Of a DNA stretch of 46,754 nucleotides, positions 7,372 to 46,382 are shown piece by piece. The DNA is from an uncultured Gammaproteobacteria bacterium (GTDB lineage Bacteria; Patescibacteriota; Microgenomatia; UBA10105; UBA927): positions 54,487 to 101,240 of the forward strand of contig CAYNWD010000001.1 in the NCBI GenBank assembly GCA_964400835.1. The letters run 5' to 3'. The translations under genes and the position numbers were made by a program. Numbering within the stretch: position 1 is the stretch's first letter; every line of letters begins with the position of its first letter. Below the pieces are notes generated by a model that ran no database searches, had not been told where the DNA came from, and was given only the letters and a program-made list of their open reading frames with translations.

Positions 7372-7483
7372 AGCTCCACGGGCTGCCCGCAAACGCCTGA
7401 GCGTAGCTCTGGCAGGCGGGTCTTCTCCTCATTCGGCGAGCGAAATCCGCCGAAGCTCCGATTTAATCGGAGCGAAGGCGGAT
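7368..7483 (+). repeat. Interspersed mosaic repeat family 1, copy A
   Basis: atgaagctccacgg..ggcaggcgggtcttctcc..gagcgaaatccgccgaagctccgatttaatcggagcgaaggcggat. The core 7445..7483 folds as a 7+7 bp hairpin with a GAAG/CGAA internal loop. It shares modules with copies at 22601 and 26430. Confidence 0.8.
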
Positions 7484-14469: not shown

Positions 14470-15034
14470 TCCACCAGGCGCTCACGTAATCGGCGCGCAT
14501 ATTCTGGTACTTGAGGTAATATGCGTGTTCCCAGACGTCAAGCCCCAGAACGGGCGTTTTCTTTTCCATGACCGGCGAATCCTGGTTTGGCGTGTCCGCA
14601 ATGATAAGTTTTCCCTGATCCTTCACGAGCCACACCCAACCGCTTCCGAAACGGCCCAGCGCAGAAGCAGCAAATAGTTCTTTAAATTTTTCAAAACTTC
14701 CGAATGATGCTTCTATTGTCTTTGCAAGTTCTCCGGCCGGAAGGCGGGCAGAGGCCTTGGGGTTAGGTGCCATAATCTGCCAGAATAAACGGTGATTGTA
14801 ATGGCCGCCGCCGTTGTTTCGGACCTTGGTGCGCACCGACTCCGGCACCGAATCCAGTTCTGCCAGCAATTCTTCAATGGTCGCATTGCTCAATTTTTCT
14901 AGACCGGTCAGGGCGTCGTTAAGGTTTTTGACATATGCCGCGTGGTGTTTGCCGTGGTGAATCTGCATGGTGCGCTCGTCTATAAACGGTTCCAGACTGT
15001 TGGCTGCGTAGGGTAAATCAGGAAGGGTATGCAT
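14423..15034 (-). CDS. sodA: Fe/Mn superoxide dismutase
   Basis: [39 protein letters not shown]. Confidence 0.95.
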
Positions 15035-15076
15035 ACGTCACGGTCTCCTTTCGTCCCCGTATTATATAATACAGAC

Positions 15077-17326: not shown

Positions 17327-17432
17327 TGCGCGCGTGCGGAGCGTTCTGACGGTTTACCTGACGCCTCAAATGTGATATAACAGCCACAAGCATTTTCCCC
17401 TGCCGGTTTTTGCTCCAACATTGACGAAAACT

Positions 17433-22600: not shown

Positions 22601-22670
22601 ATGAAGCTCCCCACGCTTGGCAGGGAGCGAAATCCCTCCGAAGCTCCGTTTAATCGGAGCGAAGGGGGAT
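22601..22670 (+). repeat. Interspersed mosaic repeat family 1, copy B (short form)
   Basis: atgaagctccccacgcttggcagggagcgaaatccctccgaagctccgtttaatcggagcgaagggggat. The hairpin core is 22632..22670. Confidence 0.8.
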
Positions 22671-26429: not shown

Positions 26430-26602
26430 ATGAAGCTCCCATTACCGTACGGTCGTGGTACCTGCCCGTCCGGCAGGCGGGTCTTCTCCCCACGTTTCGA
26501 AGGGAGCGAAATCCCTCCGAAGCGAAAAGATATTCGCTTATATCCGTGGGCTTACGCGAAGGGTATTTCGCGAAGGGGGATAAACCCGCGAAACCCGCGG
26601 GT
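26430..26602 (+). repeat. Interspersed mosaic repeat family 1, copy C (long form with extra hairpins)
   Basis: Same 5' modules (atgaagctccc.., ggcaggcgggtcttctcc, gagcgaaatccctccgaag) and the same closing arm cgaagggggat. Two extra stem-loops are inserted (gcgaa..ttcgc, cgcgaa..ttcgcg), followed by an acccgcg/cgcgggt hairpin. Confidence 0.8.
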
Positions 26603-31081: not shown

Positions 31082-31753
31082 TTAAAACGGAATATCCGAG
31101 GTGTCCGGATGCGCGAGTAGTTCACCCACATGCCGGTATTTGCACCAGCTGCAATTGGGATTTTCGGGAGGTATCGGTCCTTCCAGTAGGCTACTCACTT
31201 CTCCCATAAATTTTAGGAAAGAATCTTTTTGAATAGCAATTTCCATCCACTGCGGCGGGAAACTGATGAGGGCCTGGCCGTCGGCAAAGGCCACCTGATC
31301 CGGATACATGATGACGAGTCCCATCTTCGTAATATTTTTCGCCTCTCCCCGCGCCGGATGCTCGAATGCATAATGATAAGCCAGAAGCTGCGTCTGGTAC
31401 TTTGTGACCTTTTCTTCATCAGGTTTACTGATTTTAAAGTCGACAATGAGGTAGGTGCCGTCGGGTTGGCGCACCAGAAGATCGTATTTTCCTTTTATGT
31501 ATACCTTGGTCCCCGGCACCGGCTGCGACTCGATAAATCCCCCCTGACTCTCCACCTTGCCGTGCGGCAAAACCGGCGAAAGCGCGCGAAGGTCGCCGCC
31601 GACGAGCGCGCCCTGCAGGCGGGTGTTTAATGCAGTAAACACCGCCGGCATGATAGACCTGGGCCGCTCAATCCGCTGCTTTATTTTGAGGTAATAGCAC
31701 AGTTTGCATTCCTCCCAGAGGTAGGCAAAGTCAGAGGGCGACAATTTAAACAT
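31082..31753 (-). CDS. PD-(D/E)XK nuclease, Cas4/RecB-like, with four Cys
   Basis: GKYDLLV..LIVDFKISK (D..D-x-K core), plus N-terminal CKLC and C-terminal CSWC pairs. Confidence 0.7.
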   Translation of the reverse strand: MFKLSPSDFAYLWEECKLCYYLKIKQRIERPRSIMPAVFTALNTRLQGALVGGDLRALSPVLPHGKVESQGGFIESQPVPGTKVYIKGKYDLLVRQPDGTYLIVDFKISKPDEEKVTKYQTQLLAYHYAFEHPARGEAKNITKMGLVIMYPDQVAFADGQALISFPPQWMEIAIQKDSFLKFMGEVSSLLEGPIPPENPNCSWCKYRHVGELLAHPDTSDIPF

Positions 31754-31799
31754 ATGTGTACATTACGCTCGCCTGACGAAGTCCTGAGTGAAACCGAAG

Positions 31800-31829
31800 G
31801 GCGAAATCAGAAGGCGACAATTTAAACAT
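31800..31829 (-). repeat. Duplicate of the first 10 codons of the nuclease gene
   Basis: Minus-strand ATGTTTAAATTGTCGCCTTCTGATTTCGCC compared with the gene start (31753..31724) ATGTTTAAATTGTCGCCCTCTGACTTTGCC. There are 3 differences, all synonymous third positions. Confidence 0.85.
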
Positions 31830-31887
31830 ACCCGCATAGTACACCTTGGCGGCCTTCCGTGCCTAGTCAAGCCTTCTAAAGACTAGG

Positions 31888-31929
31888 TGTGAAGCTGTTT
31901 CACATCCAAGGTGCAATACGTTCACATCC
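31888..31929. repeat. 42-nt element, copy 1 (upstream of the nuclease gene, 15 nt downstream of the 460-aa gene)
   Basis: tgtgaagctgtttcacatccaaggtgcaatacgttcacatcc. Contains TGTGA-N7-TCACA. Confidence 0.8.
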
Positions 31930-31943
31930 GATTTTGAAATGAA

Positions 31944-33326
31944 CTAGCTATGTTGCTTGCGATTTCTCCTTTTGTGATCAATAGCCCTTTTATAGTCAGC
32001 GGAGACAGCTTTATATTCCTTGCTCCATGATAAAAATCGGTTCCCAATAATTCTTCTCCAAGAAAAACCCATAAACTCAATTGGCGCGGTATTGTAGTTG
32101 AGCTGCGCCTGTAATGCACGGACGCGAAGTTCTTCAAGCTCATCCTTATCACCATTAAAATTTTCTCCGCTGGCTAAGATTTCTGCTCTAACTTGCTGAA
32201 TACCATCATATGCTTCTTGGTAAAGCTTGCCTGTTCTCTCTTTCTCTCCCGAATTTCCCTGCCATGCAAGCTTAGACCAAACGAAATGGGCAATTTCTTC
32301 TATGCTGACCCCAATGAAATAAGCAAACGACTCCGGATTGGTTACAAAAATGTCGTTTTTGAATTCCCCGCTTAACTCGTTTAATGCGCCCTGCGAAAAA
32401 ACTATAAAACGCGAGTTCTCACCATCATTGCCCGGCAACTCTACATATGCAGCTTCCCCTCCGCTCATTTCCTCGTCGAACACTACGAGGGGGGGCTCAC
32501 CCGCCACCCCCAAAGGCACTTGAAAAATCCTGCGAGCCAGGCTAAGCGAAAAGAGGTATATCCAAGCCAACTCTTTTCGCTTAGCGAGCGTATTCTGTTC
32601 AGTCTTGCCTTTGGAATTACCCAGGGTAAACATTTCGACAATCCAACTCAAATCTCTCTGTTTTCGGCTGCGCCAGCTAAGGTAATCTTCATGAAGATCA
32701 TTGTATGTTTCTGCCTCTCCTGGCTCAATAATTAAATCGGGCATCAATTCCTTCAACTTTTGTGCCTCTGATGCAGTTGGATACTTGTGGTCGACCGATG
32801 CCAACCGTACTCCGGCAAGTCCTCGCTCACTTAAAATATATTCCTTCTCTACTTGTCTTGGATTAAACGCGGGATGAGCTTTCCAATAAGTAAAGATGTT
32901 TTCAGGTGGCACCTCAAACCCCAGGACTGGGGAGAACCCGCCATTATGCCGCTCGGCAAAAGCTCGTCTAGTGAGATCATAATCTGCGCTTAACGAATCG
33001 AAAGGACCAATAGCAACCCACTGACCGCTTACCTCCCTTAGGGCGCGGAAAAGTATGACGCCATCGACTCCCAACGTCTCTCCCATCTCTTTCTTAAGTA
33101 TCGACTGAGCAACATGTTCAATCTCCTGTGCGGTTTGGGGGTCTTTTTTGATTTCTTCTAAAAATTTTTTTTTATCTTCTGGTCGACCAGCTCCAACCCA
33201 TCGTGCAAGAGAAACGTGAAGTGGGGGCACACCCAAATCCTCGGGAGAACCAAGTCTACTGGAATACTTACTGAGCAACGACTTCCAATGATCTATTCTC
33301 TGCTTAGGTAGGTCGCTCTCGGCCAT
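31944..33326 (-). CDS. Orphan 460-aa protein, unknown function
   Basis: Long ORF in an AT-richer segment. I recognise no family. Confidence 0.65.
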   Translation of the reverse strand: MAESDLPKQRIDHWKSLLSKYSSRLGSPEDLGVPPLHVSLARWVGAGRPEDKKKFLEEIKKDPQTAQEIEHVAQSILKKEMGETLGVDGVILFRALREVSGQWVAIGPFDSLSADYDLTRRAFAERHNGGFSPVLGFEVPPENIFTYWKAHPAFNPRQVEKEYILSERGLAGVRLASVDHKYPTASEAQKLKELMPDLIIEPGEAETYNDLHEDYLSWRSRKQRDLSWIVEMFTLGNSKGKTEQNTLAKRKELAWIYLFSLSLARRIFQVPLGVAGEPPLVVFDEEMSGGEAAYVELPGNDGENSRFIVFSQGALNELSGEFKNDIFVTNPESFAYFIGVSIEEIAHFVWSKLAWQGNSGEKERTGKLYQEAYDGIQQVRAEILASGENFNGDKDELEELRVRALQAQLNYNTAPIEFMGFSWRRIIGNRFLSWSKEYKAVSADYKRAIDHKRRNRKQHS

Positions 33327-33375
33327 ATTCTTTTTTCTTTATACAATAATTTTTATCTGTGGAGCAACCGTTTGC

Positions 33376-33417
33376 TGTGAAGCTCTTTCACTTCCCGGGC
33401 GCAATACGTTCACTTCC
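33376..33417. repeat. 42-nt element, copy 2 (about 50 nt upstream of the 460-aa gene start)
   Basis: tgtgaagctctttcacttcccgggcgcaatacgttcacttcc. 36/42 positions match copy 1 by eye. Confidence 0.8.
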
Positions 33418-33474
33418 CCAGGCGAAATACCGGGCCGGGCAGCGCAATTGTGCGTTGCAAAATATTGCGAAAAA

Positions 33475-33756
33475 TCAACTTCGGGACCGAAGCCACCAGG
33501 ATTTGAAGACTCCCAGAGAAAGTGTCGAGATAAAGTACCCCACAGCCGGGATGATGGCGGAGATAAACGGACGATCAACGTTTAGAACGATGAGGAAGAG
33601 GGAAATCAAAAGATATGTAGCAAGACCAATGAAGATCCGCCGGGGCCGGCTCGTTTCCCACGCCTTATCCAGCTCGACCTTTCGATTGCGTTCGTTAATT
33701 TCTCTAATGTCCTGTTCTAATGCTTCAAGCGTTATCATGCTGTCCTTATTGTACAT
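33475..33756 (-). CDS. Small protein with an N-terminal coiled-coil and two C-terminal TM helices
   Basis: ITLEALEQDIREINERNRKVELDKAWE, then two hydrophobic helices. Confidence 0.5.
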   Translation of the reverse strand: MYNKDSMITLEALEQDIREINERNRKVELDKAWETSRPRRIFIGLATYLLISLFLIVLNVDRPFISAIIPAVGYFISTLSLGVFKSWWLRSRS

Positions 33757-35329: not shown

Positions 35330-35758
35330 TTATGCCGGAGGCTTGAGGGAAACCATATATGTTTTGACCGTCTTTTTGATGGCATCGACGGTCGCATCTT
35401 TTACCTCCGGAGGGCTTTCGGCTACCCATTTGGCGAAACGATAGAGCTGCTGATTGTCTATTTCAAGCCATGTATTGTTCTTGTATAGAAAAAGCAGTAA
35501 CGTCGTTACGGCAATCCGTTTATTTCCGTTTTTGAACGGATGATTTTTGACCATGAGGTAGAAGAGGATTGCCGCTTTCTGGACCAGCCCGGCATAGACA
35601 TAGCGCCCGGAGAATGTCTGGAAAGGAACCGCTAAACTACTTTCAAGGATACCCGGAAACCGTGAGGCAAACGCGGGTATGGGTTCATCCCAGTCCATGA
35701 GTTTCTTTGCCAGACTATGAGCGAGATACTCAACTTCGCTGATACTGACACTTCTCAT
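35330..35758 (-). CDS. doc: Doc (death-on-curing) / Fic-fold toxin
   Basis: Has the HPFKNGNKR Fic/Doc motif. 142 aa. The start lies 2 nt after the upstream HTH gene. Confidence 0.85.
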   Translation of the reverse strand: MRSVSISEVEYLAHSLAKKLMDWDEPIPAFASRFPGILESSLAVPFQTFSGRYVYAGLVQKAAILFYLMVKNHPFKNGNKRIAVTTLLLFLYKNNTWLEIDNQQLYRFAKWVAESPPEVKDATVDAIKKTVKTYMVSLKPPA

Positions 35759-35760
35759 AC

Positions 35761-36018
35761 CTATGCGCTCCCCAGAAGCCGGAGTGCTTCGCCGTACTCC
35801 GTCACCGTCTTTTTCACGGCCCGATCGATAATCTGCTTATCCCGAGAGGAGAGCGTCGCCTTTAGAATATTGCCTATATTTACCGGATCGACCAGGTACA
35901 TTTTCCCGACTTTTGTCGCTTTTATCTGGCCCTTTTTGATCCTATAAAATATCGCCACCCTGCTCACTCCAAGCATCTTGGCAACTTCTGTAGTGGATAA
36001 AAAACGTTTTTCCGTCAT
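35761..36018 (-). CDS. Excisionase/MerR-like HTH protein, putative antitoxin of Doc
   Basis: LSTTEVAKMLGVSRVAIFYRIKKGQIKATKVGKMYLV (HTH_17-like) plus a short C-terminal tail. Positioned as the first gene of the pair. Confidence 0.7.
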   Translation of the reverse strand: MTEKRFLSTTEVAKMLGVSRVAIFYRIKKGQIKATKVGKMYLVDPVNIGNILKATLSSRDKQIIDRAVKKTVTEYGEALRLLGSA

Positions 36019-36115: not shown

Positions 36116-36562
36116 TCACCGCCTGCCTGTCGGCAGACAGGCTTTCTTTACAAGTAGCGCGATTTTTGCCTCCTCCGCAGCAGTCAGTTTCGTGAGGGCA
36201 AATGCGGTAGGCCACATGGCCCCTTCATCAAGATTTGCCATGTCGCTGAAACCGAGCGTCGCGTACCTTGCCTTGAACTTATGGGCGCCCTGGAAGAAGC
36301 AGACGACCTTGCCGTCCTTATTCGCATATGCGGGCATCCCGTACCAGGTCTTGGGTGTCAGACCTGGTGCATTAGCCTTGATGATCGCATGGAGACGCGT
36401 GGCCATGGTGCGATCCGGTTCCGGCATCTGGGAAATTTTAGCGAGCACCGCTGCTTCCCCGTCCGCATGGACCGCCATGAGCTCCCGGGCGCGTTCCTTC
36501 ATGGCGGCTCGTTCAAAGTCCGTGAATCCCTTGGCTTTCTTACGAATATTTGGCTTCGGCAT
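36116..36562 (-). CDS. DUF1801/YdhG-like protein
   Basis: [37 protein letters not shown] resembles YdhG-family proteins. Confidence 0.55.
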
Positions 36563-36583
36563 CTCCTTGTATGTAAATCGCGA

Positions 36584-36904
36584 TTACATCATGCCTGAAA
36601 AAAGCAGCACGAGTGCCACTGCGGTAAGAGCGCAGAAGATAGTAACGGTTTGAACGAAAAGCTTCATCCCTTCTGTCTTTTTTCCGCTCATAAAAAACTG
36701 GAGCGGCTGGTAAAAAAATACATACGCCATGACCGTGACCGAGAGGGTAAGGAGGGATAAAAATACGACCGGAGCAAAAAAAGTATCAGGCTTGTCTCGC
36801 AGCGTACGGGTAACAACATTCATGATCGTGACGACCAAGGCGATATACGCTGAAGCTCCAAGGGCATTAACAAGAGGATTCTTGGACATAGGATGATTAT
36901 ACAC
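36584..36904 (-). CDS. Small three-TM membrane protein
   Basis: 106 aa with three hydrophobic helices. Confidence 0.5.
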   Translation of the reverse strand: MYNHPMSKNPLVNALGASAYIALVVTIMNVVTRTLRDKPDTFFAPVVFLSLLTLSVTVMAYVFFYQPLQFFMSGKKTEGMKLFVQTVTIFCALTAVALVLLFSGMM

Positions 36905-36914
36905 CCGTGCTCGC

Positions 36915-37328
36915 CTACTGGGGCGGTTTTCGGATCGGTACCCTTACGCGCATGTCTCTCATGCTGCGATAAAATTCAACGCTCGGTCTGGAGTGGTCCA
37001 CATCGAAATTTTTTGACAATTTTTCAAATGTTTTGCCAATAGATTCTATGTCATCGTTCCAATTCTCTATTTTCTCCTGGGCGTAGAGACCCTTCGGTAT
37101 GGATCCCACGTGGTAGTCCCATTCTTTGGGCACATCGGTTTTTTGCAATTCAACACATGCCCAGTACTCATCTTTTGGCGGCGTTCCAAAAATTAGTCCA
37201 TAGAATTTCCTGCCTCTCAGCGTGGGTAGTTTTTCCTCAAGTTTGTCAAAAGCGGACTTGGAGCCTCGTACACCAGAGTCAGACCTTACGTACATTATTG
37301 TAATTTCTGGATAGTCGTTCGTGGTCAT
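36915..37328 (-). CDS. GyrI-like (small-molecule-binding) domain protein, tentative
   Basis: The size and the C-terminal ..SVEFYRS..VRVPIR pattern are GyrI-like. Has a 4-nt overlap with the upstream gene. Confidence 0.4.
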   Translation of the reverse strand: MTTNDYPEITIMYVRSDSGVRGSKSAFDKLEEKLPTLRGRKFYGLIFGTPPKDEYWACVELQKTDVPKEWDYHVGSIPKGLYAQEKIENWNDDIESIGKTFEKLSKNFDVDHSRPSVEFYRSMRDMRVRVPIRKPPQ

Positions 37329-37828
37329 ACGTTGATTGAGCCGAGACGACCTAATTTTTCAAGATACTTATTGTAAGGTACACGAATGACTTCAGCGCTT
37401 TCCAATGTAAATTCCTTCTCCAAAGCAGCGTGTTCCGTTGGAGGATAATCCAGAACGATGGAGTGGAGGAAATCGTCGATGATGTATAGTCCCACGGTTC
37501 CCTCTTTGTACGAATACTCGGTATAGGCCATCTTCACGATATTCGCCGTCTGGTATCCCCGGCTTTTAAGCCACGAAAACCCCGCTTCTTTGTTTGCTAT
37601 TGGGATAGACTCTATTAAAGTAAAGCGTCCGTCGGATTCTTTGAGGACATGGACTTCGATGCGGTCAGCATACTCGACAAACTTTTCCACATCGTTACCT
37701 GTACGCTGACCATAAAAGTGCGTTGCCACAACTTCTTTGCCTTTGATTGCCCCCTTTTTATGAAGAAGCTTTTGTATATCGTCAAATGAATTTACGAGGT
37801 ATTTTTTTTCCTGGGGCTCCATGAACAC
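37325..37828 (-). CDS. CYTH / triphosphate-tunnel-metalloenzyme-like protein, tentative
   Basis: N-terminal QEKKYLV resembles the EIERKFLV strand-1 signature of the CYTH domain; 167 aa. Confidence 0.45.
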   Translation of the reverse strand: MFMEPQEKKYLVNSFDDIQKLLHKKGAIKGKEVVATHFYGQRTGNDVEKFVEYADRIEVHVLKESDGRFTLIESIPIANKEAGFSWLKSRGYQTANIVKMAYTEYSYKEGTVGLYIIDDFLHSIVLDYPPTEHAALEKEFTLESAEVIRVPYNKYLEKLGRLGSINV

Positions 37829-37923
37829 ATTGTATCATTACTAAAATAGCCCGCCATAAGGGGCTAAAAACCGGTGCCCCTCTGCCATGATCTTGCGCTA
37901 AAGTTTGTCAAACTGGGAAAATA

Positions 37924-38772
37924 TCAAGCCGGCTTATTAGCAGTTACTATATTGTAGCCTAAAAAATTTCTGTATGGCCAAATAAGCAAAGAGGCTGCCC
38001 AGTTTGTCCTATCTTGTATCTGACCTCTAAGCACATCAGGCGATCGCCTAACGGCTCCCTGAAACATCCACTGCCACGTGGGCCAAACATGCGGACTAAT
38101 GTCGGTAACGTGAACATTTTCAAAGCCAGAATCTTGCAATAAATCAGGAAAGGCGCCGTGAGTAAAACGCTCTATACTGGCCATACCAGTGCGTCGTACA
38201 AAGAAGTCAGTTATTAATTTCCGCAACGGGTCTAATGTTTTCCTGTCAGGCACAGAGTACTCAAATAAAGTTAATCTCCCACCGGGCTTAAGTACCCGCA
38301 AAAACTCACCGAGCGCTTGCTCTAGCGGGTCGGCATGAACCAGAGTTTCCATGGTAAAAATTCCGTCTACAGAAGACCCAGGAAGCGGAATGGCGCCGTA
38401 ATTACCGTTGAGTAGTCTAACTTTTTCAGCGCGGTTGCAGCGAGTGTACCGCCTGGCCTCGCTTAAGCGCTCAAAAATGAGATCTATTCCAATGATGTTC
38501 AAACCGAATTCTCCGCTTAAAGTAGCTGCTACCCTTCCAAAACCACAGCCTGCATCCACTACTGTTGACCCTGGGGGTAAGCCAAGTGATTGACCAAGCA
38601 TATTCTCCATGGCACGTAGACCAGCCTTTAGGTCAAATGCCTTGCCGTCGGGTGTGTAACCAAAATGACAGGCACCGCCGAAAGGGCCTGTGAGGTAGGT
38701 GGGAGAATCGGCATAGTAACGTCTCGTCCGATCAACGCCACTGATATTTCTTGCTCTTTCTCCGGTGAACAT
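37924..38772 (-). CDS. Class I SAM-dependent methyltransferase
   Basis: Motif I VVDAGCGFGR, motif post-I IGIDL, and ..LKPGGRL. Confidence 0.85.
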   Translation of the reverse strand: MFTGERARNISGVDRTRRYYADSPTYLTGPFGGACHFGYTPDGKAFDLKAGLRAMENMLGQSLGLPPGSTVVDAGCGFGRVAATLSGEFGLNIIGIDLIFERLSEARRYTRCNRAEKVRLLNGNYGAIPLPGSSVDGIFTMETLVHADPLEQALGEFLRVLKPGGRLTLFEYSVPDRKTLDPLRKLITDFFVRRTGMASIERFTHGAFPDLLQDSGFENVHVTDISPHVWPTWQWMFQGAVRRSPDVLRGQIQDRTNWAASLLIWPYRNFLGYNIVTANKPA

Positions 38773-38920
38773 TTTGGGAATGGTATCAATCTAGAAGTCG
38801 AAAGTCAAACTATAGGCTACTTTCTTCATGCCCTGAACGAAATCCGAACCCAGTTCCGGCAAACCCCCGACGAATGAAGTCGCCCGCCGCTCGCTGACGC
38901 TCGCTGTTCCGCAATAAAGC

Positions 38921-39886
38921 TTATTTATTAATCCTTCCTCTTAACTTACCCATAAGTTTGTTTAAGCGCCAAACTACCTCTCTACCGTCCCCATCTTTTT
39001 CCCTTTTTCTCAGTGAATTCGTATCAATCAGTATTAATTTTCCACTGGGGGTAAATCTTAAATTTTGACTCTGAGCATGATCCATGGAAGGGTCTGGGTA
39101 ATATCCTGTTTCTTCCAAAACCCTCGCTACTGTGGTTGAAAAATCTTCCAGCTGCCTTATCATACCTTCAGTGACTGGATACTCCTCTGGGAGACGAAAG
39201 ACAGAAGGGCTTAATTCTTTCACAAAATTTTGAACCATAGCATACACAATTTGACCCTTGTTGATATATATTTCTTTACCATCTTCTGTAAGTTTTCCCT
39301 GACTTTTCAGCGTAGCAGTTTCTTTGCGTGCCCATGAGAGCCACCCCTTGTCTACTTCTAAAGCACCCTCGGGTATAAATGACACATCGGCAGTTATATT
39401 TTCACAAGCTACAAAAGACACAAATACTGCCGGTACAACAAAAGGACCAAACAGTTCTTCGTGTTTTCGATGCTCCCAAGCAGTTACTACAAGTAATTTT
39501 TCTTTTTCATTTAAGTCTTCAAATTTTACCTTCTTATCTCTATTATGAAATAAAACCAGCCCTGGTTCGTCCAAAGTTTGTTGAAATTCTGCATGATCGA
39601 TTTGTGAAAGCCTAGCTTTTAAACCTTCTAAAGGCCGGCTTTCTTCATCTTTCAAAACTTTTACAACAACGGGAACTTTTACACCATCAATTTCCGGAAA
39701 ATATAAATCCACATAAGCTCCCCGTTCTCCAGAAGGGTTTAAAGCTTCGCAAGAAGATAAAGATCCCGAAAGTAATTCAAGAAAGGTTTTTTCCCTTGAA
39801 GGAGTATTCAAATCACTAAACCTGGGCACTCCTTGAAGCACAAGCTCTGTAACGCTTCGTAAATTATCTACCCCTCCTTCCATCAT
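38921..39886 (-). CDS. Orphan 321-aa protein, possibly with an atypical kinase-like fold
   Basis: VPVVVKVLKDE (VAIK-like) and HAQSQNLRFTPSGKLILIDTN (catalytic-loop/DFG-like, but with the Asp replaced). Weak evidence. Confidence 0.5.
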   Translation of the reverse strand: MMEGGVDNLRSVTELVLQGVPRFSDLNTPSREKTFLELLSGSLSSCEALNPSGERGAYVDLYFPEIDGVKVPVVVKVLKDEESRPLEGLKARLSQIDHAEFQQTLDEPGLVLFHNRDKKVKFEDLNEKEKLLVVTAWEHRKHEELFGPFVVPAVFVSFVACENITADVSFIPEGALEVDKGWLSWARKETATLKSQGKLTEDGKEIYINKGQIVYAMVQNFVKELSPSVFRLPEEYPVTEGMIRQLEDFSTTVARVLEETGYYPDPSMDHAQSQNLRFTPSGKLILIDTNSLRKREKDGDGREVVWRLNKLMGKLRGRINK

Positions 39887-39947
39887 AGCCTCATAATATC
39901 AGTTTTTGGTCCCCGTAATAAACCAAGTTAGGCCTTTTATGTATATA

Positions 39948-40009
39948 TAAACCGGGGTCAGACTTTTACCCTGAGCCCGCCTGCCCTGAGCTTGCCGAAG
40001 GATTGATTG
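39948..40009 (+). repeat. Interspersed repeat family 2, copy 1 (short, with internal duplication)
   Basis: aaaccggggtcagacttttaccctgagcccgcctgccctgagcttgccgaaggattgattg. Confidence 0.75.
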
Positions 40010-40043
40010 CTCTCCTGGTTCGTTCAGTGCATACTGGAAGAAG

Positions 40044-40514
40044 ATGAAAGACGTGCACAAGCTTATTGTTTCTGTAATTGGCTGTGAATTAGTGGGGGTC
40101 CTCGGTACTCCCTTTACCATTTCCGCTATTCCCACCTGGTACGCCACTTTAAATAAGCCGTCCTTTGCCCCACCCAACTGGATCTTCGGACCGGTTTGGA
40201 CACTTTTATACCTAATGATGGGCGTAGCCTTTTACTTAATTTGGAAACAAGGCTGGAAGAAAAAGAAAGTCAGAACGGCTGGCATGTTCTTTCTAGCACA
40301 ACTGGCATTAAATTTTTTCTGGTCACCGGTTTTCTTTGGACTGCGAGCACCATTGTTGGGGTTGATTGTGATTGTGGCTATGTGGGCATTGATCGTCATG
40401 ACCATGAAGAAGTTCTACCCCTTATCAAGACTGGCGTTTTATCTGCTGGTGCCATATCTGCTGTGGGTTAGTTTTGCCACCATACTCAATGCAGCGATTG
40501 TAATTTTGAACTAA
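40044..40514 (+). CDS. tspO: TspO/MBR tryptophan-rich sensory protein
   Basis: WYATLNKPSFAPPNWIFGPVWTLLYLMMGVAFYLIW..FFLAQLALNFFWSPVFFG. Confidence 0.9.
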   Translation: MKDVHKLIVSVIGCELVGVLGTPFTISAIPTWYATLNKPSFAPPNWIFGPVWTLLYLMMGVAFYLIWKQGWKKKKVRTAGMFFLAQLALNFFWSPVFFGLRAPLLGLIVIVAMWALIVMTMKKFYPLSRLAFYLLVPYLLWVSFATILNAAIVILN

Positions 40515-40699
40515 AGAATGAAAACCGGGGTCAGACCTTTACCCTGAGCCCGTCGAAGGGTTGATTGTATTGTCGCAACAGTTTTCCGGAATACTTTAAT
40601 ATGTTCCTGACTTCTCAAATATCTGTGCTGCTCTCCTGCTAGTATCTGATTCAGCACTCCGGCCACACCGCCAATGATGATTAAATCAAATTCGTTCAT
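40511..40699 (-). pseudogene. Remnant N-terminus of an FAD/NAD(P)-binding oxidoreductase truncated by repeat copy 2
   Basis: MNEFDLIIIGGVAGVLNQ is a Rossmann dinucleotide-binding start. From ..RYL onward the reading frame is repeat sequence. Confidence 0.4.
40520..40622 (+). repeat. Interspersed repeat family 2, copy 2
   Basis: gaaaaccggggtcagacctttaccctgagcccgtcgaagggttgattgtattgtcgcaacag... About 87% identical by eye over about 103 nt to 46280..46382. Confidence 0.85.
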
Positions 40700-40733
40700 C
40701 TAGTCATTGCACTAAGAATCACCCAACTTTTGC

Positions 40734-41261
40734 TCAAGGAATTTTATCGAGCTGTTGTTTGATTTGCGCACCTGATTCTGTACCGAAAGTAACAAGTAAT
40801 TTGTCTCCTTCTTGAATTTCCTGATTGAGAGCATTGTCGTTTTTTTCTCCGTTAAGGTAAAACTGCAATACGCCACCGTTACCTGTGCAGAATGTTTCTT
40901 TTGCGCCAGTAGTAAGGCATTGAGAAGTTAATTTAAAAGGGAGGGTCGAAAAGAAATCATTCCAAGTTGTACCTGACTTCTTCACCCGAACAATATTGGG
41001 ATTATTTGCCTCAATATACACGTCCTGAGAAAGATTGTGATACATCGCCGCGGTAAAAACTCTAAAGGTGCCATTGGTAAAAATGGCGAAGGAAGCCTTT
41101 TTATCGACTTCTTGTATGAGAGGCAAAGACTTAGTCGCCTCACCGAGAGACACTTTCTGGCTAGGAATGTCATTTGAATTCTTATAAGAACCAGAAAAAA
41201 TAAAATAACCAGCAGAAAAGAATATAAGTATTATTACTGCAATCGGAATAATTTTATTCAT
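40734..41261 (-). CDS. Membrane-anchored exported hypothetical protein with a Cys pair
   Basis: N-terminal anchor MNKIIPIAVIILIFFSAGYFIF, and ..SQCLTTGAKETFCTG... Last gene of the same-strand cluster. Confidence 0.6.
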   Translation of the reverse strand: MNKIIPIAVIILIFFSAGYFIFSGSYKNSNDIPSQKVSLGEATKSLPLIQEVDKKASFAIFTNGTFRVFTAAMYHNLSQDVYIEANNPNIVRVKKSGTTWNDFFSTLPFKLTSQCLTTGAKETFCTGNGGVLQFYLNGEKNDNALNQEIQEGDKLLVTFGTESGAQIKQQLDKIP

Positions 41262-41331
41262 AAACTTTTATATTCATAGAGTTTGACTAAAATCGAACTG
41301 TGGATTGTATTGATGATTATCCATGGGCTAA

Positions 41332-43722
41332 CTATTTATCATTTACGCTGTGACCACCAAACTGATGACGGAGTGCGGATATGACCTGCCCCGTATATGA
41401 TGGTTTATTTTGTGACTGTTTTCTAAACTCTACGGAGCCTTTGATGATAGGAGCTGGCACGCTAAGCTCGCCAGCCGCTTCCACTGTCCACTCACCTTCT
41501 CCGCTTTGGGTAACCTTACCGGAACAACATTCCTCATTGTCCAGGTTGTCGCCGAATTGGGCATAAACTTCAGCTAACCAGCCGACTAAGCGGGAAGTAA
41601 TCACCGAACCATGATTGTATAGATTGGCAATGGAATGCAAATCAAGAGTAAATGGGGATTTTTTCAGTATCGCAAAACCTTCGCCTAAGGCTTGCATCAT
41701 CCCGTACTCAATCCCGTTGTGGATCATCTTCACAAAATGACCGGCTCCGGAACTGCCTACGTAAACGTAACCGTCACGTATAGCCACACTCCTAAATAAC
41801 ACCTCATTCTCCTGATAAACCGATTTTTCACCACCGATCATCATGCAGGCCCCGTAACGGGCTCCACCCGGACCACCGGAAACTCCCACATCCAGAAAGC
41901 GAATGCCTCTTTCCTTTAATTTTGAATGCAGCTTCATGGACTGTTTGTATGGAGAATTGCCTCCATCAATGACCGTGTCCCCTTCATGCAGGAGCGGCAA
42001 CAGTTCTTCGACTAGGGACTCCACTGCATGATGGGGAACCATCAACCAAACCACCCGCGGTTGAGCCAGCTTGTTTATTAATTCAGTGAGTGTGTACTCG
42101 CCCTGCAGTCCTTCTGTTTCCAGTTCCCGCGTAATCTCAGGAGAACGGTTAAACCCATACACTTTCCATCCTTTGGAAATCATTTGTCTCGCTAAGTTGG
42201 CACCCATTTTCCCTAAACCAATCACACCAACCTCTTTTTTATCTGGCACTTCTGCATTTTTAATATTTCGTCCGAGAAAACTAACTTGGGGATCAGTATC
42301 AACTTCATATTTTCCCAGAGGGACATTCGATCGTTTCCAGTATTCAACAATGGGCTCAGTAAATTTCCATTCAGCTTCAACCTCTCGGAATGAGACAAAT
42401 AAAGATTGCTCGCCGTTTATCGCAGAATATAAGACTTTGGCATACTCTTCGACATATTGCATCTTGGTTTTTTTCTCATAGAGAAAAAAGGAGAAGGATC
42501 TCTCTTCCAGAACCTTCTCGAACCCTGGTTTTTTTGTCCAAAAATTAATGATGACCTCATCATTGGGTGCGAAACGGAAAATAATAGTATTGAGGTTGTG
42601 ATTGGGGTCAATGGCACATAAATGACAAACTGCCGGATGCTTCAGGGTCACCATAATTTCCTTGCGGGTTTCTGCCAGGCGCTTGCCTGCATGAATAGTA
42701 ATAGGTACCCCCTTCCATTTGGGATGAAGAAGCTCTGTCTGCAAGGCAAAAAAGGTTTCTGCATCAGAATTTGAGCCAACTCCCTCAATGGTAGAATAGC
42801 CATTATATTGAGCACGGTAGGTTTTCTGCCGGAGCGTATTTTCTGTCCATGGCGCTAAGGTTGCCAAAGCATCGGCCCGGCTATCGGGTATACCAGCCTC
42901 TTGTGTATTCAGCGGGTAATCCATGGTGAGGCTGGTGAGAATAGAGAGCAAATGGTTCTGCCCCACGTCACGTAGTGCACCGACTGAATCATAAAAACTT
43001 CCCCGATCTTCTGCTCCAATAGTTTCGCGCAATACTAAATCTATACGCTCTATAGATGTATTGTCCCAAATATTCTCAAAAAGATTATTGGAAAAGCGGA
43101 AGTTTTCTATGCCCTGAATAATTTCCTTGAATAAATAGTGATCGATGCGATAGATTTGTTCTTCTTTAAAATAGCTTCTCAATAGTTTTTGAAGCTCCCG
43201 GGCTGACGCCAGATCCAATCCAAAAGGTTTTTCAATCAATACCCGGCTCCAGCCCAATTCGCCGCCACAGGGGATATTCAATTTTACTCTCTCTAGATTT
43301 TTAAAAATGACCTTATAATTTTTGGGTGGAACAGCTAAATAAAAGAGCTTATTGGCACAAACATTCCAGGCTGTTTCGACAGCATGTATTTTTTCAGAAA
43401 GGGACCGGAAAGCATCTCCATCCTCAAAGGCACCCTGCTGATACGAAAAAATTTCACAGAATTGAGAAAAATGTACGTCGTCAACCCGCTCCCCTCGTAG
43501 CTTCGTAAGAACTTGAAGAAGGTAATCACGAAAATCCTGATCCGAAATGGTTCTACGAGAAAATCCAACAATACTTATTTTCTCTGGCAAGCGATGTTGT
43601 TGAAACAAAAACCAGAGAGAGGGAATGATTTTTTTGGTTGCCAAATCACCTGTCATACCAAAAATGACAAGGATGGTAGGGCTAGATATGGATTGATTTT
43701 GTTTGGTTTTTAATTTGCTCAT
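41332..43722 (-). CDS. Fusion protein: glucose-6-phosphate dehydrogenase (N-terminal) plus decarboxylating 6-phosphogluconate dehydrogenase, short Gnd/YqeC type (C-terminal)
   Basis: G6PD: ILVIFGMTGDLATKKIIPSLW and RIDHYLFKE. 6PGDH: VGVIGLGKMGANLARQM, VIDGGNS and GAGHFVKMIHNGIEYGMMQ. One uninterrupted frame. The start is uncertain (ATG 43722, ATG 43773 or GTG 43818). The junction is near 42250. Confidence 0.85.
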   Translation of the reverse strand: MSKLKTKQNQSISSPTILVIFGMTGDLATKKIIPSLWFLFQQHRLPEKISIVGFSRRTISDQDFRDYLLQVLTKLRGERVDDVHFSQFCEIFSYQQGAFEDGDAFRSLSEKIHAVETAWNVCANKLFYLAVPPKNYKVIFKNLERVKLNIPCGGELGWSRVLIEKPFGLDLASARELQKLLRSYFKEEQIYRIDHYLFKEIIQGIENFRFSNNLFENIWDNTSIERIDLVLRETIGAEDRGSFYDSVGALRDVGQNHLLSILTSLTMDYPLNTQEAGIPDSRADALATLAPWTENTLRQKTYRAQYNGYSTIEGVGSNSDAETFFALQTELLHPKWKGVPITIHAGKRLAETRKEIMVTLKHPAVCHLCAIDPNHNLNTIIFRFAPNDEVIINFWTKKPGFEKVLEERSFSFFLYEKKTKMQYVEEYAKVLYSAINGEQSLFVSFREVEAEWKFTEPIVEYWKRSNVPLGKYEVDTDPQVSFLGRNIKNAEVPDKKEVGVIGLGKMGANLARQMISKGWKVYGFNRSPEITRELETEGLQGEYTLTELINKLAQPRVVWLMVPHHAVESLVEELLPLLHEGDTVIDGGNSPYKQSMKLHSKLKERGIRFLDVGVSGGPGGARYGACMMIGGEKSVYQENEVLFRSVAIRDGYVYVGSSGAGHFVKMIHNGIEYGMMQALGEGFAILKKSPFTLDLHSIANLYNHGSVITSRLVGWLAEVYAQFGDNLDNEECCSGKVTQSGEGEWTVEAAGELSVPAPIIKGSVEFRKQSQNKPSYTGQVISALRHQFGGHSVNDK

Positions 43723-43878
43723 CTTAATTTGCTGCTGGGTATCGGAGATGATTTCGGTTGTATGTTTGCCCATCTCCTCAGCGCTATTTGCCGTAAAACC
43801 ACAAACTGTTCTTCGCACAGTGGGCAGAGTAACTCATGCTTATCCATTCGTATCCCTTCCTTTTCGTTGTTACTTTTG

Positions 43879-44127
43879 CTACAGACCCAAAGCTTGATTA
43901 ATAGCGTTTTTATCAAAGCCCAGGATTTTTGCTTCGGTGCCATCATCCTTGGTAATGTGAATACAGGGAACTCCCATTGAACCACAGGTGTCCATTGAAG
44001 CTTGTACCTCATCCGGTTGTTGATCCAGAAGTACATCCTCATACTCAACGCCTTTTTCTTTAAAGTATTCCTTTGCCAATGTACAATAGGGACAAGTTGT
44101 GGTTGAATAAATTTTTACTTTTGGCAT
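43879..44127 (-). CDS. Glutaredoxin-family protein
   Basis: CPYC active site in MPKVKIYSTTTCPYCTLAKEYF; 82 aa. Confidence 0.85.
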   Translation of the reverse strand: MPKVKIYSTTTCPYCTLAKEYFKEKGVEYEDVLLDQQPDEVQASMDTCGSMGVPCIHITKDDGTEAKILGFDKNAINQALGL

Positions 44128-44175
44128 AGAGATTCACCCCCTCTCAGTGAATAATAGCACTTACACGATCACTGT

Positions 44176-44460
44176 TTAGTCATTTCTAGAAATATTGCGC
44201 TCTTTGTCCGGCTCTAAGTAATCATCATCGGCATAGCACCAGATAAACGAGTGTTCATCTGCGGGGTAGCTTGCCATCACTTGATGACCAGTTTCCTTCG
44301 CATGCTTTCTCATATGCTGTGAACAGGAATCACAACATCCAACATATCCGCAGGTTAAGCAAACTCTCTGACCAAAAGGGCAAAAGTGATTCTCCTCACA
44401 TTTTTCGGCTCCCGGTTTGGCAAAACTCTTTGGCAAATGAGTACATTCTGATATTTTCAT
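44176..44460 (-). CDS. UBP-type zinc-finger protein
   Basis: RVCLTCGYVGCCDSCSQHMRKHAKETGH matches the zf-UBP pattern. Confidence 0.7.
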   Translation of the reverse strand: MKISECTHLPKSFAKPGAEKCEENHFCPFGQRVCLTCGYVGCCDSCSQHMRKHAKETGHQVMASYPADEHSFIWCYADDDYLEPDKERNISRND

Positions 44461-44472
44461 AAGCTCACCTCC

Positions 44473-45432
44473 TTAATTATTTTGATACAGTTTTGTGCCG
44501 GGGTGAAATGCCGCCCAGGCAAACCAAAACAAACGAATCGGAATGATCGATTCTCCCGTAACTGTGTTGGTGACCACGATTTCACCATTGGCCTGTTTTT
44601 CCAGTGTGATAGAAATATCATCAAACGTGTCAGTGATTTTTGGGGTTTCATCAAAAACACTCACAGGATAAGCCTTTGAGGAACCGTTTACTTCAACTCC
44701 ATAAACCACAGTTTTAATCTGTAGGCTCCTGTCCAGACCTTTTACGCCAAAGAGAAGCTCATCGTTTTCTTCATATGTCCCATATGGGTATTGGTCGTAA
44801 TTTCTAGTAAAGCCGGTATTTCGGGAAAGAACCTGGGTATCCGGGTGCTCGTTTTTCCATTGACTCCAGGGGACGGTAATAATCGGGACTTTCACTAATG
44901 TTTCACTGCGTCTGGCAGCAGGACCTACAATCGCTTCTCCGGTAATCTGCTGCCAAAGGTTGCCCTCGTGTCGGTCGTACATGACAAGATCACTATTGTG
45001 CAACAGACCAGACACGCCAAACTCAGTGGCTGTTCCATTTACTATCCGTTCAAAGGCAAGAGCAGAACCGCACAAGGGACAAAACGTGATCGCAACAGGT
45101 GTACCTCCCGCTTCATCGTTCACAATCTCATGCCAGTTGAGGATCCTTTGGGGATAGGCTCTGACAACCCCGCGATACTCAAGCGCAAACACCCTATCCT
45201 CCGGCGCAAGCCAGGCATCCGCTGAGACGGCCGACTCAAACTGCGGGCGATCAATCGAAGGAATACAGTCACGGCCCGGGCACCCTTGTACGAGATCTTC
45301 CTTGGCTACCTTGGCCCCAGTGAAATCATCTTGCACGTTTGTGCCTGGCGCCGAGCCTGCGCTCCTCCAAATAAACAATGCCAGTGCAAGGAGGGCAAGA
45401 ACAAACAGTGGTCTTATGGGTATATTTCGCAT
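44473..45432 (-). CDS. DUF3179 protein (exported)
   Basis: DCIPSIDRPQF..VRAYPQRILNWHEIVND..ITFCPLCGSA..GVSGLLHNSDLVMYD, with an N-terminal signal. Confidence 0.85.
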   Translation of the reverse strand: MRNIPIRPLFVLALLALALFIWRSAGSAPGTNVQDDFTGAKVAKEDLVQGCPGRDCIPSIDRPQFESAVSADAWLAPEDRVFALEYRGVVRAYPQRILNWHEIVNDEAGGTPVAITFCPLCGSALAFERIVNGTATEFGVSGLLHNSDLVMYDRHEGNLWQQITGEAIVGPAARRSETLVKVPIITVPWSQWKNEHPDTQVLSRNTGFTRNYDQYPYGTYEENDELLFGVKGLDRSLQIKTVVYGVEVNGSSKAYPVSVFDETPKITDTFDDISITLEKQANGEIVVTNTVTGESIIPIRLFWFAWAAFHPGTKLYQNN

Positions 45433-46234: not shown

Positions 46235-46279
46235 ATATCCAACTCTACATCGGCGCACTTCCCCTGTCAACTCTTCAGT

Positions 46280-46382
46280 GAAAACCGGGGTCAAACCCTT
46301 ACCCTGAACCCGTCGAAGGGTTGATTATCTTGTCGCAACAGCTTCTCGGAATACTTTAGTATATCTCTGCCTTCCAAATACA
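46280..46382 (+). repeat. Interspersed repeat family 2, copy 3
   Basis: gaaaaccggggtcaaacccttaccctgaacccgtcgaagggttgattatcttgtcgcaacag.., directly upstream of the arsR-like gene. Confidence 0.85.

Follow-up and report, generated by a model that had tools for sequence, protein, structure and literature searches.

A 46,754-nucleotide (nt) stretch of a Patescibacteria contig (CAYNWD010000001.1 of assembly GCA_964400835.1, positions 54,487 to 101,240; hereafter the window) carries two neighboring minus-strand genes, each of which is preceded by nearly the same 42-nt sequence. One is an orphan open reading frame (ORF) of 460 amino acids (aa), and the other encodes a Cas4-like PD-(D/E)XK nuclease. 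An initial annotation, made from the sequence alone, had read this arrangement either as a shared operator or promoter that co-regulates a two-gene, possibly defence-like module or as a pair of direct repeats that bracket the 460-aa gene as a cassette. Does the repeat join two genes in function, or does it mark the edges of an insert? The cassette reading fits our results best, and the same arrangement recurs in other genomes. On balance, we lean towards a model in which the locus is an insertion hotspot, with the 460-aa ORF as the insert and the 42-nt copies as junction duplications, and in which the 5′ flank of the nuclease gene would repeatedly have received variable, often defence-type genes in Patescibacteria.

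Two copies of a 42-nt repeat bracket the 460-aa gene

The repeat was reproduced as first described: the two copies lie in the same orientation at the same coordinates (Table 1), are identical at 36 of 42 positions (86%), and end 49 nt short of the 460-aa ORF and 134 nt short of the nuclease start, where about 50 and 135 nt had been reported. Similarity between them stops at the repeat borders. A trivial origin, in which the repeat would be meaningless, as a chance similarity or as part of a dispersed family of short repeats, is very improbable. It is true that the window holds other repeats, among them a 96/31-nt family with three copies and pairs of 38 and 24 nt, and that, of the contig's length of about 138 kb, 46.7 kb was inspected for repeats. 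Chance is nonetheless largely refuted as the source of the repeat. A degenerate 38-nt pattern of the 42-nt sequence matches the window twice, at the two copies themselves, and matched nothing in any of 100 dinucleotide-preserving shuffles. The two copies sit exactly at the borders of the only compositionally foreign orphan gene, a 31-nt repeat of similar style adjoins them, and other genomes show the pattern at this gene too.

Each copy is itself built of two 22-nt sub-repeats, both of which open with GGAWGTGAA. Read on the transcribed strand, these begin GGATGTGAAC and GGATGTGAAA in the proximal copy, the one nearer the nuclease, and GGGAAGTGAAC and GGGAAGTGAAA in the distal copy. Every sub-repeat contains the inverted repeat GTGAA-N5-TKCAC, and the two copies have in common GTGAA-N5-TTCAC and a second, imperfect GTGAA-N5-TGCRC; Tandem Repeats Finder reports a period of 23 at 33387-33430. 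The copies also show a matched difference, with T in both sub-repeats of one copy and A in both of the other. The TGTGA-N7-TCACA palindrome named in the initial annotation is perfect in the proximal copy but not in the distal one, and its likeness to a CRP/FNR-type half-site does not hold, the spacing being N7 rather than N6 and the shared palindrome being GTGAA-N5-TTCAC. The CRP consensus is TGTGA-N6-TCACA and that of FNR is TTGAT-N4-ATCAA.

This ordered architecture is one argument for a shared operator or promoter, which a transcription factor would bind so as to co-regulate the two genes, their products acting together in a two-gene defence or mobile-element system. Both genes have the element upstream of them in the same orientation, and its palindrome-bearing sub-repeats, which show a matched base difference between the copies, are spaced 22 nt apart, or about two turns of the helix. 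Nuclease and partner pairs are common in defence systems, and in the available part of Hudaiberdiev et al. 2017 (PMC5704561) solo Cas4 genes beside restriction-modification (RM) genes are seen as possibly defensive. Nonetheless, we consider this reading unlikely. The distances to the two starts are unequal (49 vs 134 nt), as are those from each copy to the best −10-like hexamer (32 nt for the 460-aa ORF vs 46 nt for the nuclease); the spacing departs from that of CRP sites; and the motif was not found upstream of 77 other members of the nuclease family. Further evidence against it comes from the gene neighborhoods described below.

Under the criteria of a consensus promoter scan, neither copy has a sigma-70-like promoter downstream of it. 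By eye, TTGCTC-18-TATAAA can be seen 5′ of the 460-aa ORF and TACTAT 6 nt 5′ of the nuclease pseudo-start (see below), both weak. One terminator-like hairpin follows the 93-aa gene on the upstream flank and another lies where the nuclease gene has its 3′ end, and none lies between the 460-aa ORF and the nuclease, so the two genes may be co-transcribed; the hairpins would set them apart as one possible transcription unit. Structured RNA at the repeats was also considered and rejected, with folding z-scores of −0.37, −0.02, −1.75 and +0.39 against shuffles showing no excess. Rfam gave no match at gathering score anywhere in the window.

The 5′ end of the nuclease gene is duplicated in the window and in other genomes

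A second direct repeat, absent from the initial annotation, lies at the nuclease gene itself. Its two copies, 76 nt apart, agree at 28 of 31 positions and correspond to nuclease codons 1-10 plus one upstream nt, so that this part of the gene is present twice. The displaced copy opens a relic ORF of 27 codons, whose stop overlaps the true nuclease start codon. Measured to this pseudo-start, the proximal 42-nt copy is 58 nt away, close to the 49-nt gap between the distal copy and the 460-aa ORF.

The duplication is not peculiar to this genome. At 5 of 77 other loci with the nuclease (6 of 78 with the window), the 5′ end of the nuclease gene is present once more on the same strand. Control segments of equal size from the middle and the 3′ end of the gene gave 0 of 78 and 0 of 76, and a fourth segment gave 2 of 76. 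At loci L012, L029, L035 and L081 the intact nuclease gene has the fragment upstream of it, with cargo in between (Table 1). Across L012, L022, L029, L035, L081, L082 and L083, the fragments (24-113 nt) are 80-97% identical to the intact nuclease of the same genome. L082 and L083 hold relic 5′ fragments without the gene, the L083 relic with an in-frame stop; in L082, a PDC-S06 ATPase (E = 1e-163) stands between the fragment and a different Cas4-like nuclease, 21% identical. An analogue of the 42-nt repeat, in which upstream non-coding DNA is repeated around genes, was seen at L024, L037 and L056.

Could the 42-nt copies be sites for a recombinase encoded elsewhere, for example a Xer-like one, with the 460-aa gene moving as a dif/pdif module or an integron cassette does? 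The copies tightly bracket a single gene, each contains tandem short inverted repeats around a 5-nt spacer, and short direct repeats also bracket other genes of the window, such as a TspO-like gene (40044-40514). We regard such a system as improbable here. The arms are only 5-6 nt long, unlike those of Xer sites, which have arms of 11 nt, or attC sites, which are 57-141 nt long. No integrase or recombinase is present among the bracketed cargo genes of L012, L029, L035, L081 and L082; none was identified in the window cargo or adjoining it, and Pfam gave the 460-aa protein no match. A metagenome scan with the 42-nt element returned two matches, in unrelated GC-rich DNA, that we judge to be due to chance, and a viral scan returned none. 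Furthermore, the repeats end at different points relative to the ATG (+22/+29, +27, +58/+72, +71, +96 and +127), and because these borders vary between genomes there is no fixed crossover point. One dedicated site is disfavored because the bracketing repeats differ between genomes in sequence, being nuclease 5′ coding DNA in some and other, non-coding DNA in others, as well as in their borders. Integration linked to tRNA genes was rejected on the ground that the window has none.

Table 1. Features of the locus, with repeats of the nuclease 5′ end at other loci (positions of the latter relative to the nuclease ATG)
Feature	Position	Strand	Remarks
460-aa orphan ORF, cargo gene	31944..33326	-	GC 0.46, GC content at third codon positions (GC3) 0.44
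N-terminal domain of 460-aa protein, aa 1-205	32712..33326	-	helical lead-in and beta-rich core; R94 / S111 / E160-x-E162
C-terminal domain of 460-aa protein, aa 206-460	31947..32711	-	function unassigned; homologues stand-alone, ~180-295 aa
Distal 42-nt copy (D1-B)	33376..33417	-	57 nt past stop of 93-aa gene; two 22-nt sub-repeats, GGGAAGTGAA...
Proximal 42-nt copy (D1-A)	31888..31929	-	14 nt past stop of 460-aa ORF
PD-(D/E)XK nuclease, 223 aa	31082..31753	-	CxxC...CxxC; solo Cas4-like, PF12705; anchor gene of the proposed hotspot
Functional nuclease 5′ end (D2-A)	31724..31754	-	partner of displaced copy
Displaced partial nuclease 5′ end (D2-B)	31800..31830	-	codons 1-10 and 1 nt upstream
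27-codon relic ORF	31746..31829	-	opens at displaced copy; MFKLSPSDFALRFHSGLRQASVMYTYV* (MFKLSPSDFALRF...)
Membrane-type ORF, 93 aa	33475..33756	-	upstream flank of 460-aa ORF
Terminator-like hairpin	33476..33495	-	after 93-aa gene, before distal copy
Terminator-like hairpin	31094..31110	-	3′ end of nuclease gene
Nuclease 5′-end repeat, window			24-31 nt
Nuclease 5′-end repeat, L012	-1..+96		98 nt, 95%; cargo SoFic (E = 3e-103)
Nuclease 5′-end repeat, L035	+15..+127		113 nt, 91%; cargo PDC-S13/Bro-N (E = 2e-126) and Fic/PDC-S04
Nuclease 5′-end repeat, L081			60-85 nt; cargo Asp-protease-like protein
Nuclease 5′-end repeat, L029			81-104 nt; cargo NYN nuclease
Nuclease 5′-end repeat, L022			29 nt; order: intact gene, Bro-N gene, fragment

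The nuclease is a conserved native gene with a variable upstream neighbor

The nuclease is a strongly conserved Patescibacteria gene of native composition, not a foreign one, and the proposal that it forms part of a foreign insert was not borne out. Members of its family share 60-80% identity in more than 80 genomes. A homology search gave 567 matches; the best 120 of these share 62-80% identity with it and come from Patescibacteria wherever the source is named, one being Candidatus Wunengus. The 80 genome loci that were recovered with the nuclease belong to Gottesman-, Woese-, Roizman-, Levy- and Berkelbacteria, Paceibacterota and others. In an alignment of 40 members, 55 columns are invariant, among them D91, D105-x-K107, Q122, Y126, C16-x2-C19 and C201-x2-C204, in agreement with the D..DxK core and the CxxC..CxxC pointed out initially. 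A phage origin was rejected, as no member of the family occurs among IMG/VR viral contigs. The claim that the whole segment is richer in AT than its flanks holds for the 460-aa ORF, with 46.0% GC and a GC3 of 0.44 vs 53.6% GC for bases 1-30000, but not for the nuclease, which lies outside the AT-rich segment because its GC of 51.9% and GC3 of 0.61 resemble those of the core genes at 27-31 kb (GC3 0.54-0.64).

Judged by its sequence, the nuclease belongs with the solo Cas4-like group of PF12705 and is not Cas4 proper. It matches PF12705 with E = 1.3e-11, scores 31.8 bits with the Cas4 equivalog TIGR00372, below the cut-off of 65, and gives partial matches to the PADLOC Cas4 models (E = 3e-8 to 3e-6). 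The four-cysteine cluster of canonical Cas4 is arranged 1+3 (C...CxxC...C), and that of the present nuclease is 2+2 (C16xxC19...C201xxC204). With regard to CRISPR linkage, the window has no repeat array and the neighbors of the nuclease are unrelated, within a scan for cas genes that took in part of the window's genes.

In these respects the gene resembles the solo Cas4-like nucleases from Candidate Phyla Radiation (CPR) and DPANN organisms as they appear in the available part of Hudaiberdiev et al. 2017 (PMC5704561): both have the D...DxK...QxxxY core and four cysteines, lie away from CRISPR loci in bacteria with small genomes, are mostly inherited vertically, are strongly conserved and often have RM neighbors. 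The present nuclease differs in matching PF12705, not the Cas4 models proper, and in its CxxC...CxxC cysteines. Solo Cas4-like genes are described there as over-represented in CPR and DPANN genomes, with a function in repair or defence that is unknown, and the solo Cas4 genes that adjoin RM genes are read as having a possible role in defence. Duplication of the 5′ end around inserts at this nuclease is not mentioned in the available part of that paper.

The gene directly upstream of the nuclease is different in nearly every genome. The three closest contexts have a type IIG/ISP RM gene with DUF6119, a type III RM system with a UvrD helicase, and an EVE/YhcG/NucS-type nuclease. Pfam and PADLOC assignments of 75 upstream neighbors include ResIII (four times), Fic/SoFic (three times), Eco57I, N6_Mtase, type I S and R subunits, Mrr, a Schlafen-type helicase, RhuM and an RT-protease, along with housekeeping genes such as superoxide dismutase (three times), a DEAD helicase and TspO. 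The 93-aa ORF on the far side of the 460-aa gene has one homologue among the loci. In that genome, a Gottesmanbacteria one, about 6.5 kb separates it from the nuclease downstream, with HflX, a type ISP RM system, DUF7718, DUF5647 and an EVE nuclease in between.

These neighborhoods also decide whether the two genes form a pair. Searches of six-frame translations with tblastn and profiles detected, in 83 nuclease loci, nothing related to the N-terminal or the C-terminal half of the 460-aa protein, and they found no nuclease in the 7 loci that have homologues of the 460-aa domains. One single-amplified genome, AM-312-A20, contains both families, on different contigs, so the families are unlinked there. 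The two-gene module thus fails because homologues of its members never co-occur as neighbors in these loci, an outcome that the initial annotation had itself named as telling against it. Against the operator reading, which would have the two genes work together, it also counts that the nuclease is native and highly conserved, whereas its supposed partner is an orphan. The view that the shared 42-nt element indicates a functional gene pair is not supported.

The 460-aa protein joins two domains that occur apart elsewhere

The 460-aa protein had no match in Pfam, PHROGs, NCBIfam or the PDB sequences. In a word-indexed search of 5.8 billion clustered proteins its sole match was itself, and an exhaustive HMMER search of 1.84 billion representatives returned 20 distant relatives, each of which spans only one half of the query. 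Relatives of residues ~5-200 are proteins of 150-300 aa and internal or C-terminal segments of proteins of 886-2510 aa; those of residues ~206-456 are three proteins, 178-295 aa in length. When the alignment of the N-terminal domain (N-domain) served for a profile search, two further proteins were gained, and tblastn of this domain against 50,697 phage genomes gave no match. Because its two halves occur elsewhere as separate genes that are not neighbors, the 460-aa ORF is, as far as these searches go, a unique fusion. An origin as a fused two-gene system, in which an N-domain gene would lie beside a C-domain gene in other genomes, was rejected, since homologues of the two halves never adjoin each other and have ClpB, EF-Tu/S10 or rubrerythrin beside them instead. 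The neighbors of the domain homologues are housekeeping genes, NUDIX and CTP synthase being further examples.

The C-terminal domain (C-domain) has the conserved motifs EE..H.V....AW and E.M...W.R..G....WS. It has no detectable relative of known function, and its profile gave noise against the PDB sequences. Among the longer N-domain relatives are four metagenomic giants of 1982-2510 aa (P0127, P0129, P0131 and P0132), in which the matching segment is internal; these have no Pfam match and, in PHROGs, one weak match to a tape-measure protein.

The N-domain is probably an ADP-ribosyltransferase of the R-S-E type, as predicted from conserved residues and a structural model. Across 18 homologues no residues are invariant except R94 (within L-Y/F-R-G/A), S111 (within D-S-x-T/S) and P140, with N143 and E162 (within E-x-E-F/Y-I-L) nearly so, and the 18 sequences thus present the Arg, Ser-x-Ser/Thr and Glu-x-Glu elements in the order found in these enzymes. 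AlphaFold2 run with the N-domain alignment gave a model with a predicted local distance difference test (pLDDT) of 88 and a predicted template modeling score (pTM) of 0.86, the single sequence having been useless for this purpose (pLDDT 36). In the model, R94 ends a strand, S111 lies on a strand that is followed by a helix, and E162 starts a strand. Motif order, spacing and placement on strands and helix are those of the R-S-E ADP-ribosyltransferases (T4 ModA/ModB/Alt, C3-like toxins, ParT and ART-PolyVal), and like ART-PolyVal-type domains the N-domain is also found embedded in giant proteins of 2000-2500 aa.

Several comparisons point the same way at low significance. Foldseek against the PDB gave nothing significant; the best plausible match was the toxin ParT (E = 0.64, Foldseek probability 0.44, root-mean-square deviation 4.0 over 80 columns), with PARP2/3 ranking lower. 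Against BFVD the best E-value was 0.009, and the matches include proteins named ADP-ribosyltransferase (E = 0.18-0.47), ART-PolyVal-like and MuF. An hhalign comparison with T4 ModA/ModB placed LYRG on LWRG and DSxT on VSAS, in register (E = 0.005, hhalign probability 7%). That all of these values are below threshold (E of about 0.6 for Foldseek against the PDB, 0.009 at best in BFVD and 7% in hhalign) counts against the assignment. So does the absence of any ADP-ribosyltransferase family when Pfam was run on the 18 homologues at E-values up to 10, and of any ADP-ribosyltransferase match when the N-domain profile was run against the PDB sequences, where it returned noise. Unlike the described ADP-ribosyltransferase families, the N-domain has no significant sequence or profile match, and it differs from the R-S-E enzymes in an 85-residue helical N-terminal extension and in its fusion to a 255-aa domain of unassigned function.

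One stand-alone N-domain homologue (P0123, in contexts L090/L091) lies directly upstream of the genes for EF-Tu and ribosomal protein S10. T4 ModB, to which the N-domain bears a weak resemblance, ADP-ribosylates EF-Tu; the position of this homologue beside EF-Tu may be a coincidence.

A model for insertion at the 5′ flank of the nuclease

In the insertion model that we favor, the ancestral locus would have had one 42-nt copy about 58 nt upstream of the nuclease start. The 460-aa gene, an orphan with low GC3, would have been acquired from elsewhere and inserted by recombination inside the 42-nt stretch, whether through a circular intermediate (Campbell-type), by one-sided homology or with the help of some recombinase, and the 42-nt sequence would now flank the insert because recombination took place within it. 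A separate event of the same kind would have duplicated nuclease codons 1-10 and left the relic ORF. The 42-nt stretch was probably part of the upstream control region of the nuclease, and the insert may have inherited a regulatory site from it, because the duplicated piece was promoter-proximal in the nuclease. Such a site would consist of the two 22-nt sub-repeats, each GTGAA-N5-TKCAC; these sub-repeats, their palindromes and the matched T/A difference may leave room for a putative protein-binding function that passed to the insert. Any co-regulation of the two genes would then be a by-product of the insertion.

Accessory and foreign in composition, the 460-aa gene occupies the slot that contains defence-type genes in relatives. 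Its product could be a toxin or a defence effector in which the N-domain carries out an NAD+-using modification of a protein target, with the C-domain as a sensor, regulator or targeting part. The PADLOC check that had been proposed for it found 0 families at E ≤ 0.01 (PADLOC-DB 2.0).

Several observations weigh against this model. Neither an empty site, with a single 42-nt copy and no insert, nor a close relative of this genome was found, and for this reason we infer the insertion rather than observe it. The varying repeat borders give no fixed crossover site, and no recombinase was identified. Repeats of 24-113 nt are short for ordinary homologous recombination. The fragment of L022, which lies downstream of the intact gene, is not predicted by the simple model, and the ordered sub-repeats with their concerted T/A difference hint at an independent function for the 42-nt element. 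Finally, because the 460-aa protein has no PADLOC match and its domain homologues lie amid housekeeping genes, it is the position of the gene alone that suggests a defence role.

A close precedent is given by the genomic islands of dusA-specific integrases (Farrugia et al. 2015, PMC4482086), which enter a conserved gene at its 5′ end and restore it. As in dusA islands, the cargo lies upstream of a conserved gene, the repeats correspond to the 5′ end of that gene, and an intact gene stands beside a displaced fragment. Repeats of the 5′ end that flank an insert and leave the gene intact measure 31 nt in the window and 60-113 nt in L012, L029, L035 and L081. Unlike dusA islands, the present loci have no integrase, their cargo is one or two genes of 0.4-2.7 kb and their borders are variable; in the window, moreover, the main repeat is non-coding, promoter-proximal DNA. 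The loci also resemble defence islands and hotspots flanked by core genes, with a conserved flanking gene and variable content rich in RM, Fic, NYN, ATPase and PADLOC candidates. They differ from known defence hotspots in their Patescibacteria host and in an anchor nuclease whose 5′ end is duplicated, and the cargo of the window has no PADLOC match.

A bolder version of the model would make the nuclease start an integrase-free landing pad that swaps single-gene defence or toxin cassettes by short homology, possibly aided by the nuclease, and would make the 460-aa protein a new ADP-ribosyltransferase-based effector captured there; we think this a long shot. Patescibacteria have tiny genomes, mostly without CRISPR, and are thought to depend on DNA uptake, and the exchange of defence genes among them is poorly known. 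If the model is correct, integrase-free duplication of a gene's 5′ end around small defence-type inserts would be a simple route of gene capture by recombination, and the nuclease would serve as a practical marker, upstream of which new defence or toxin genes of Patescibacteria could be sought. The 460-aa protein defines a small, undescribed family of probable ADP-ribosyltransferases that also occurs inside giant proteins of ~2000-2500 aa. The part worth pursuing is that, in Patescibacteria, the 5′ end of the nuclease gene is duplicated time and again around defence cargo.

Other features of the window

About 2 kb from the 460-aa locus, positions 35330-36018 (minus strand) encode an HTH_17 protein of 85 aa and, after it, a Fic/DOC protein of 142 aa (PADLOC candidate PDC-S23, E = 1.6e-21), likely a Doc-type toxin-antitoxin or defence pair. 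A repeat family at 39949-39979, 40519-40614 and 46279-46374 (31-96 nt, 86-97% identical) has two copies that tightly bracket a TspO/MBR-like gene of 156 aa (40044-40514) and a third 5.8 kb beyond, so that two copies enclose a low-GC block. This family could be another gene-bracketing repeat of the kind described above, or else a terminator-like element.

Well outside the 460-aa locus, too, the window is mosaic in composition. Positions 36500-45000 have a GC content of 0.44 vs 0.54 in the first 30 kb, and the GC3 of their ORFs falls to 0.28 in one (38921-39886) that has no match among the PDB sequences. The same low-GC (0.44) segment contains an 828-aa ORF (41332-43818, minus strand) in which glucose-6-phosphate dehydrogenase (aa ~46-505, E = 1e-72 to PDB entries of this enzyme) is fused to 6-phosphogluconate dehydrogenase (aa ~526-824, E = 1e-55). 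At gene ends, GC-rich hairpin-like repeats occur at 22607-22644 and 26486-26523 (38 nt, 92%) and at 7408-7431 and 26469-26492 (24 nt, 92%), and these are probably shared terminator-type elements. On the plus strand, two adjacent paralogues of 765 and 824 aa (15029-17326 and 17421-19895) contain DNA blocks that are 70-86% identical at a spacing of ~2770 nt, indicating a tandem gene duplication.

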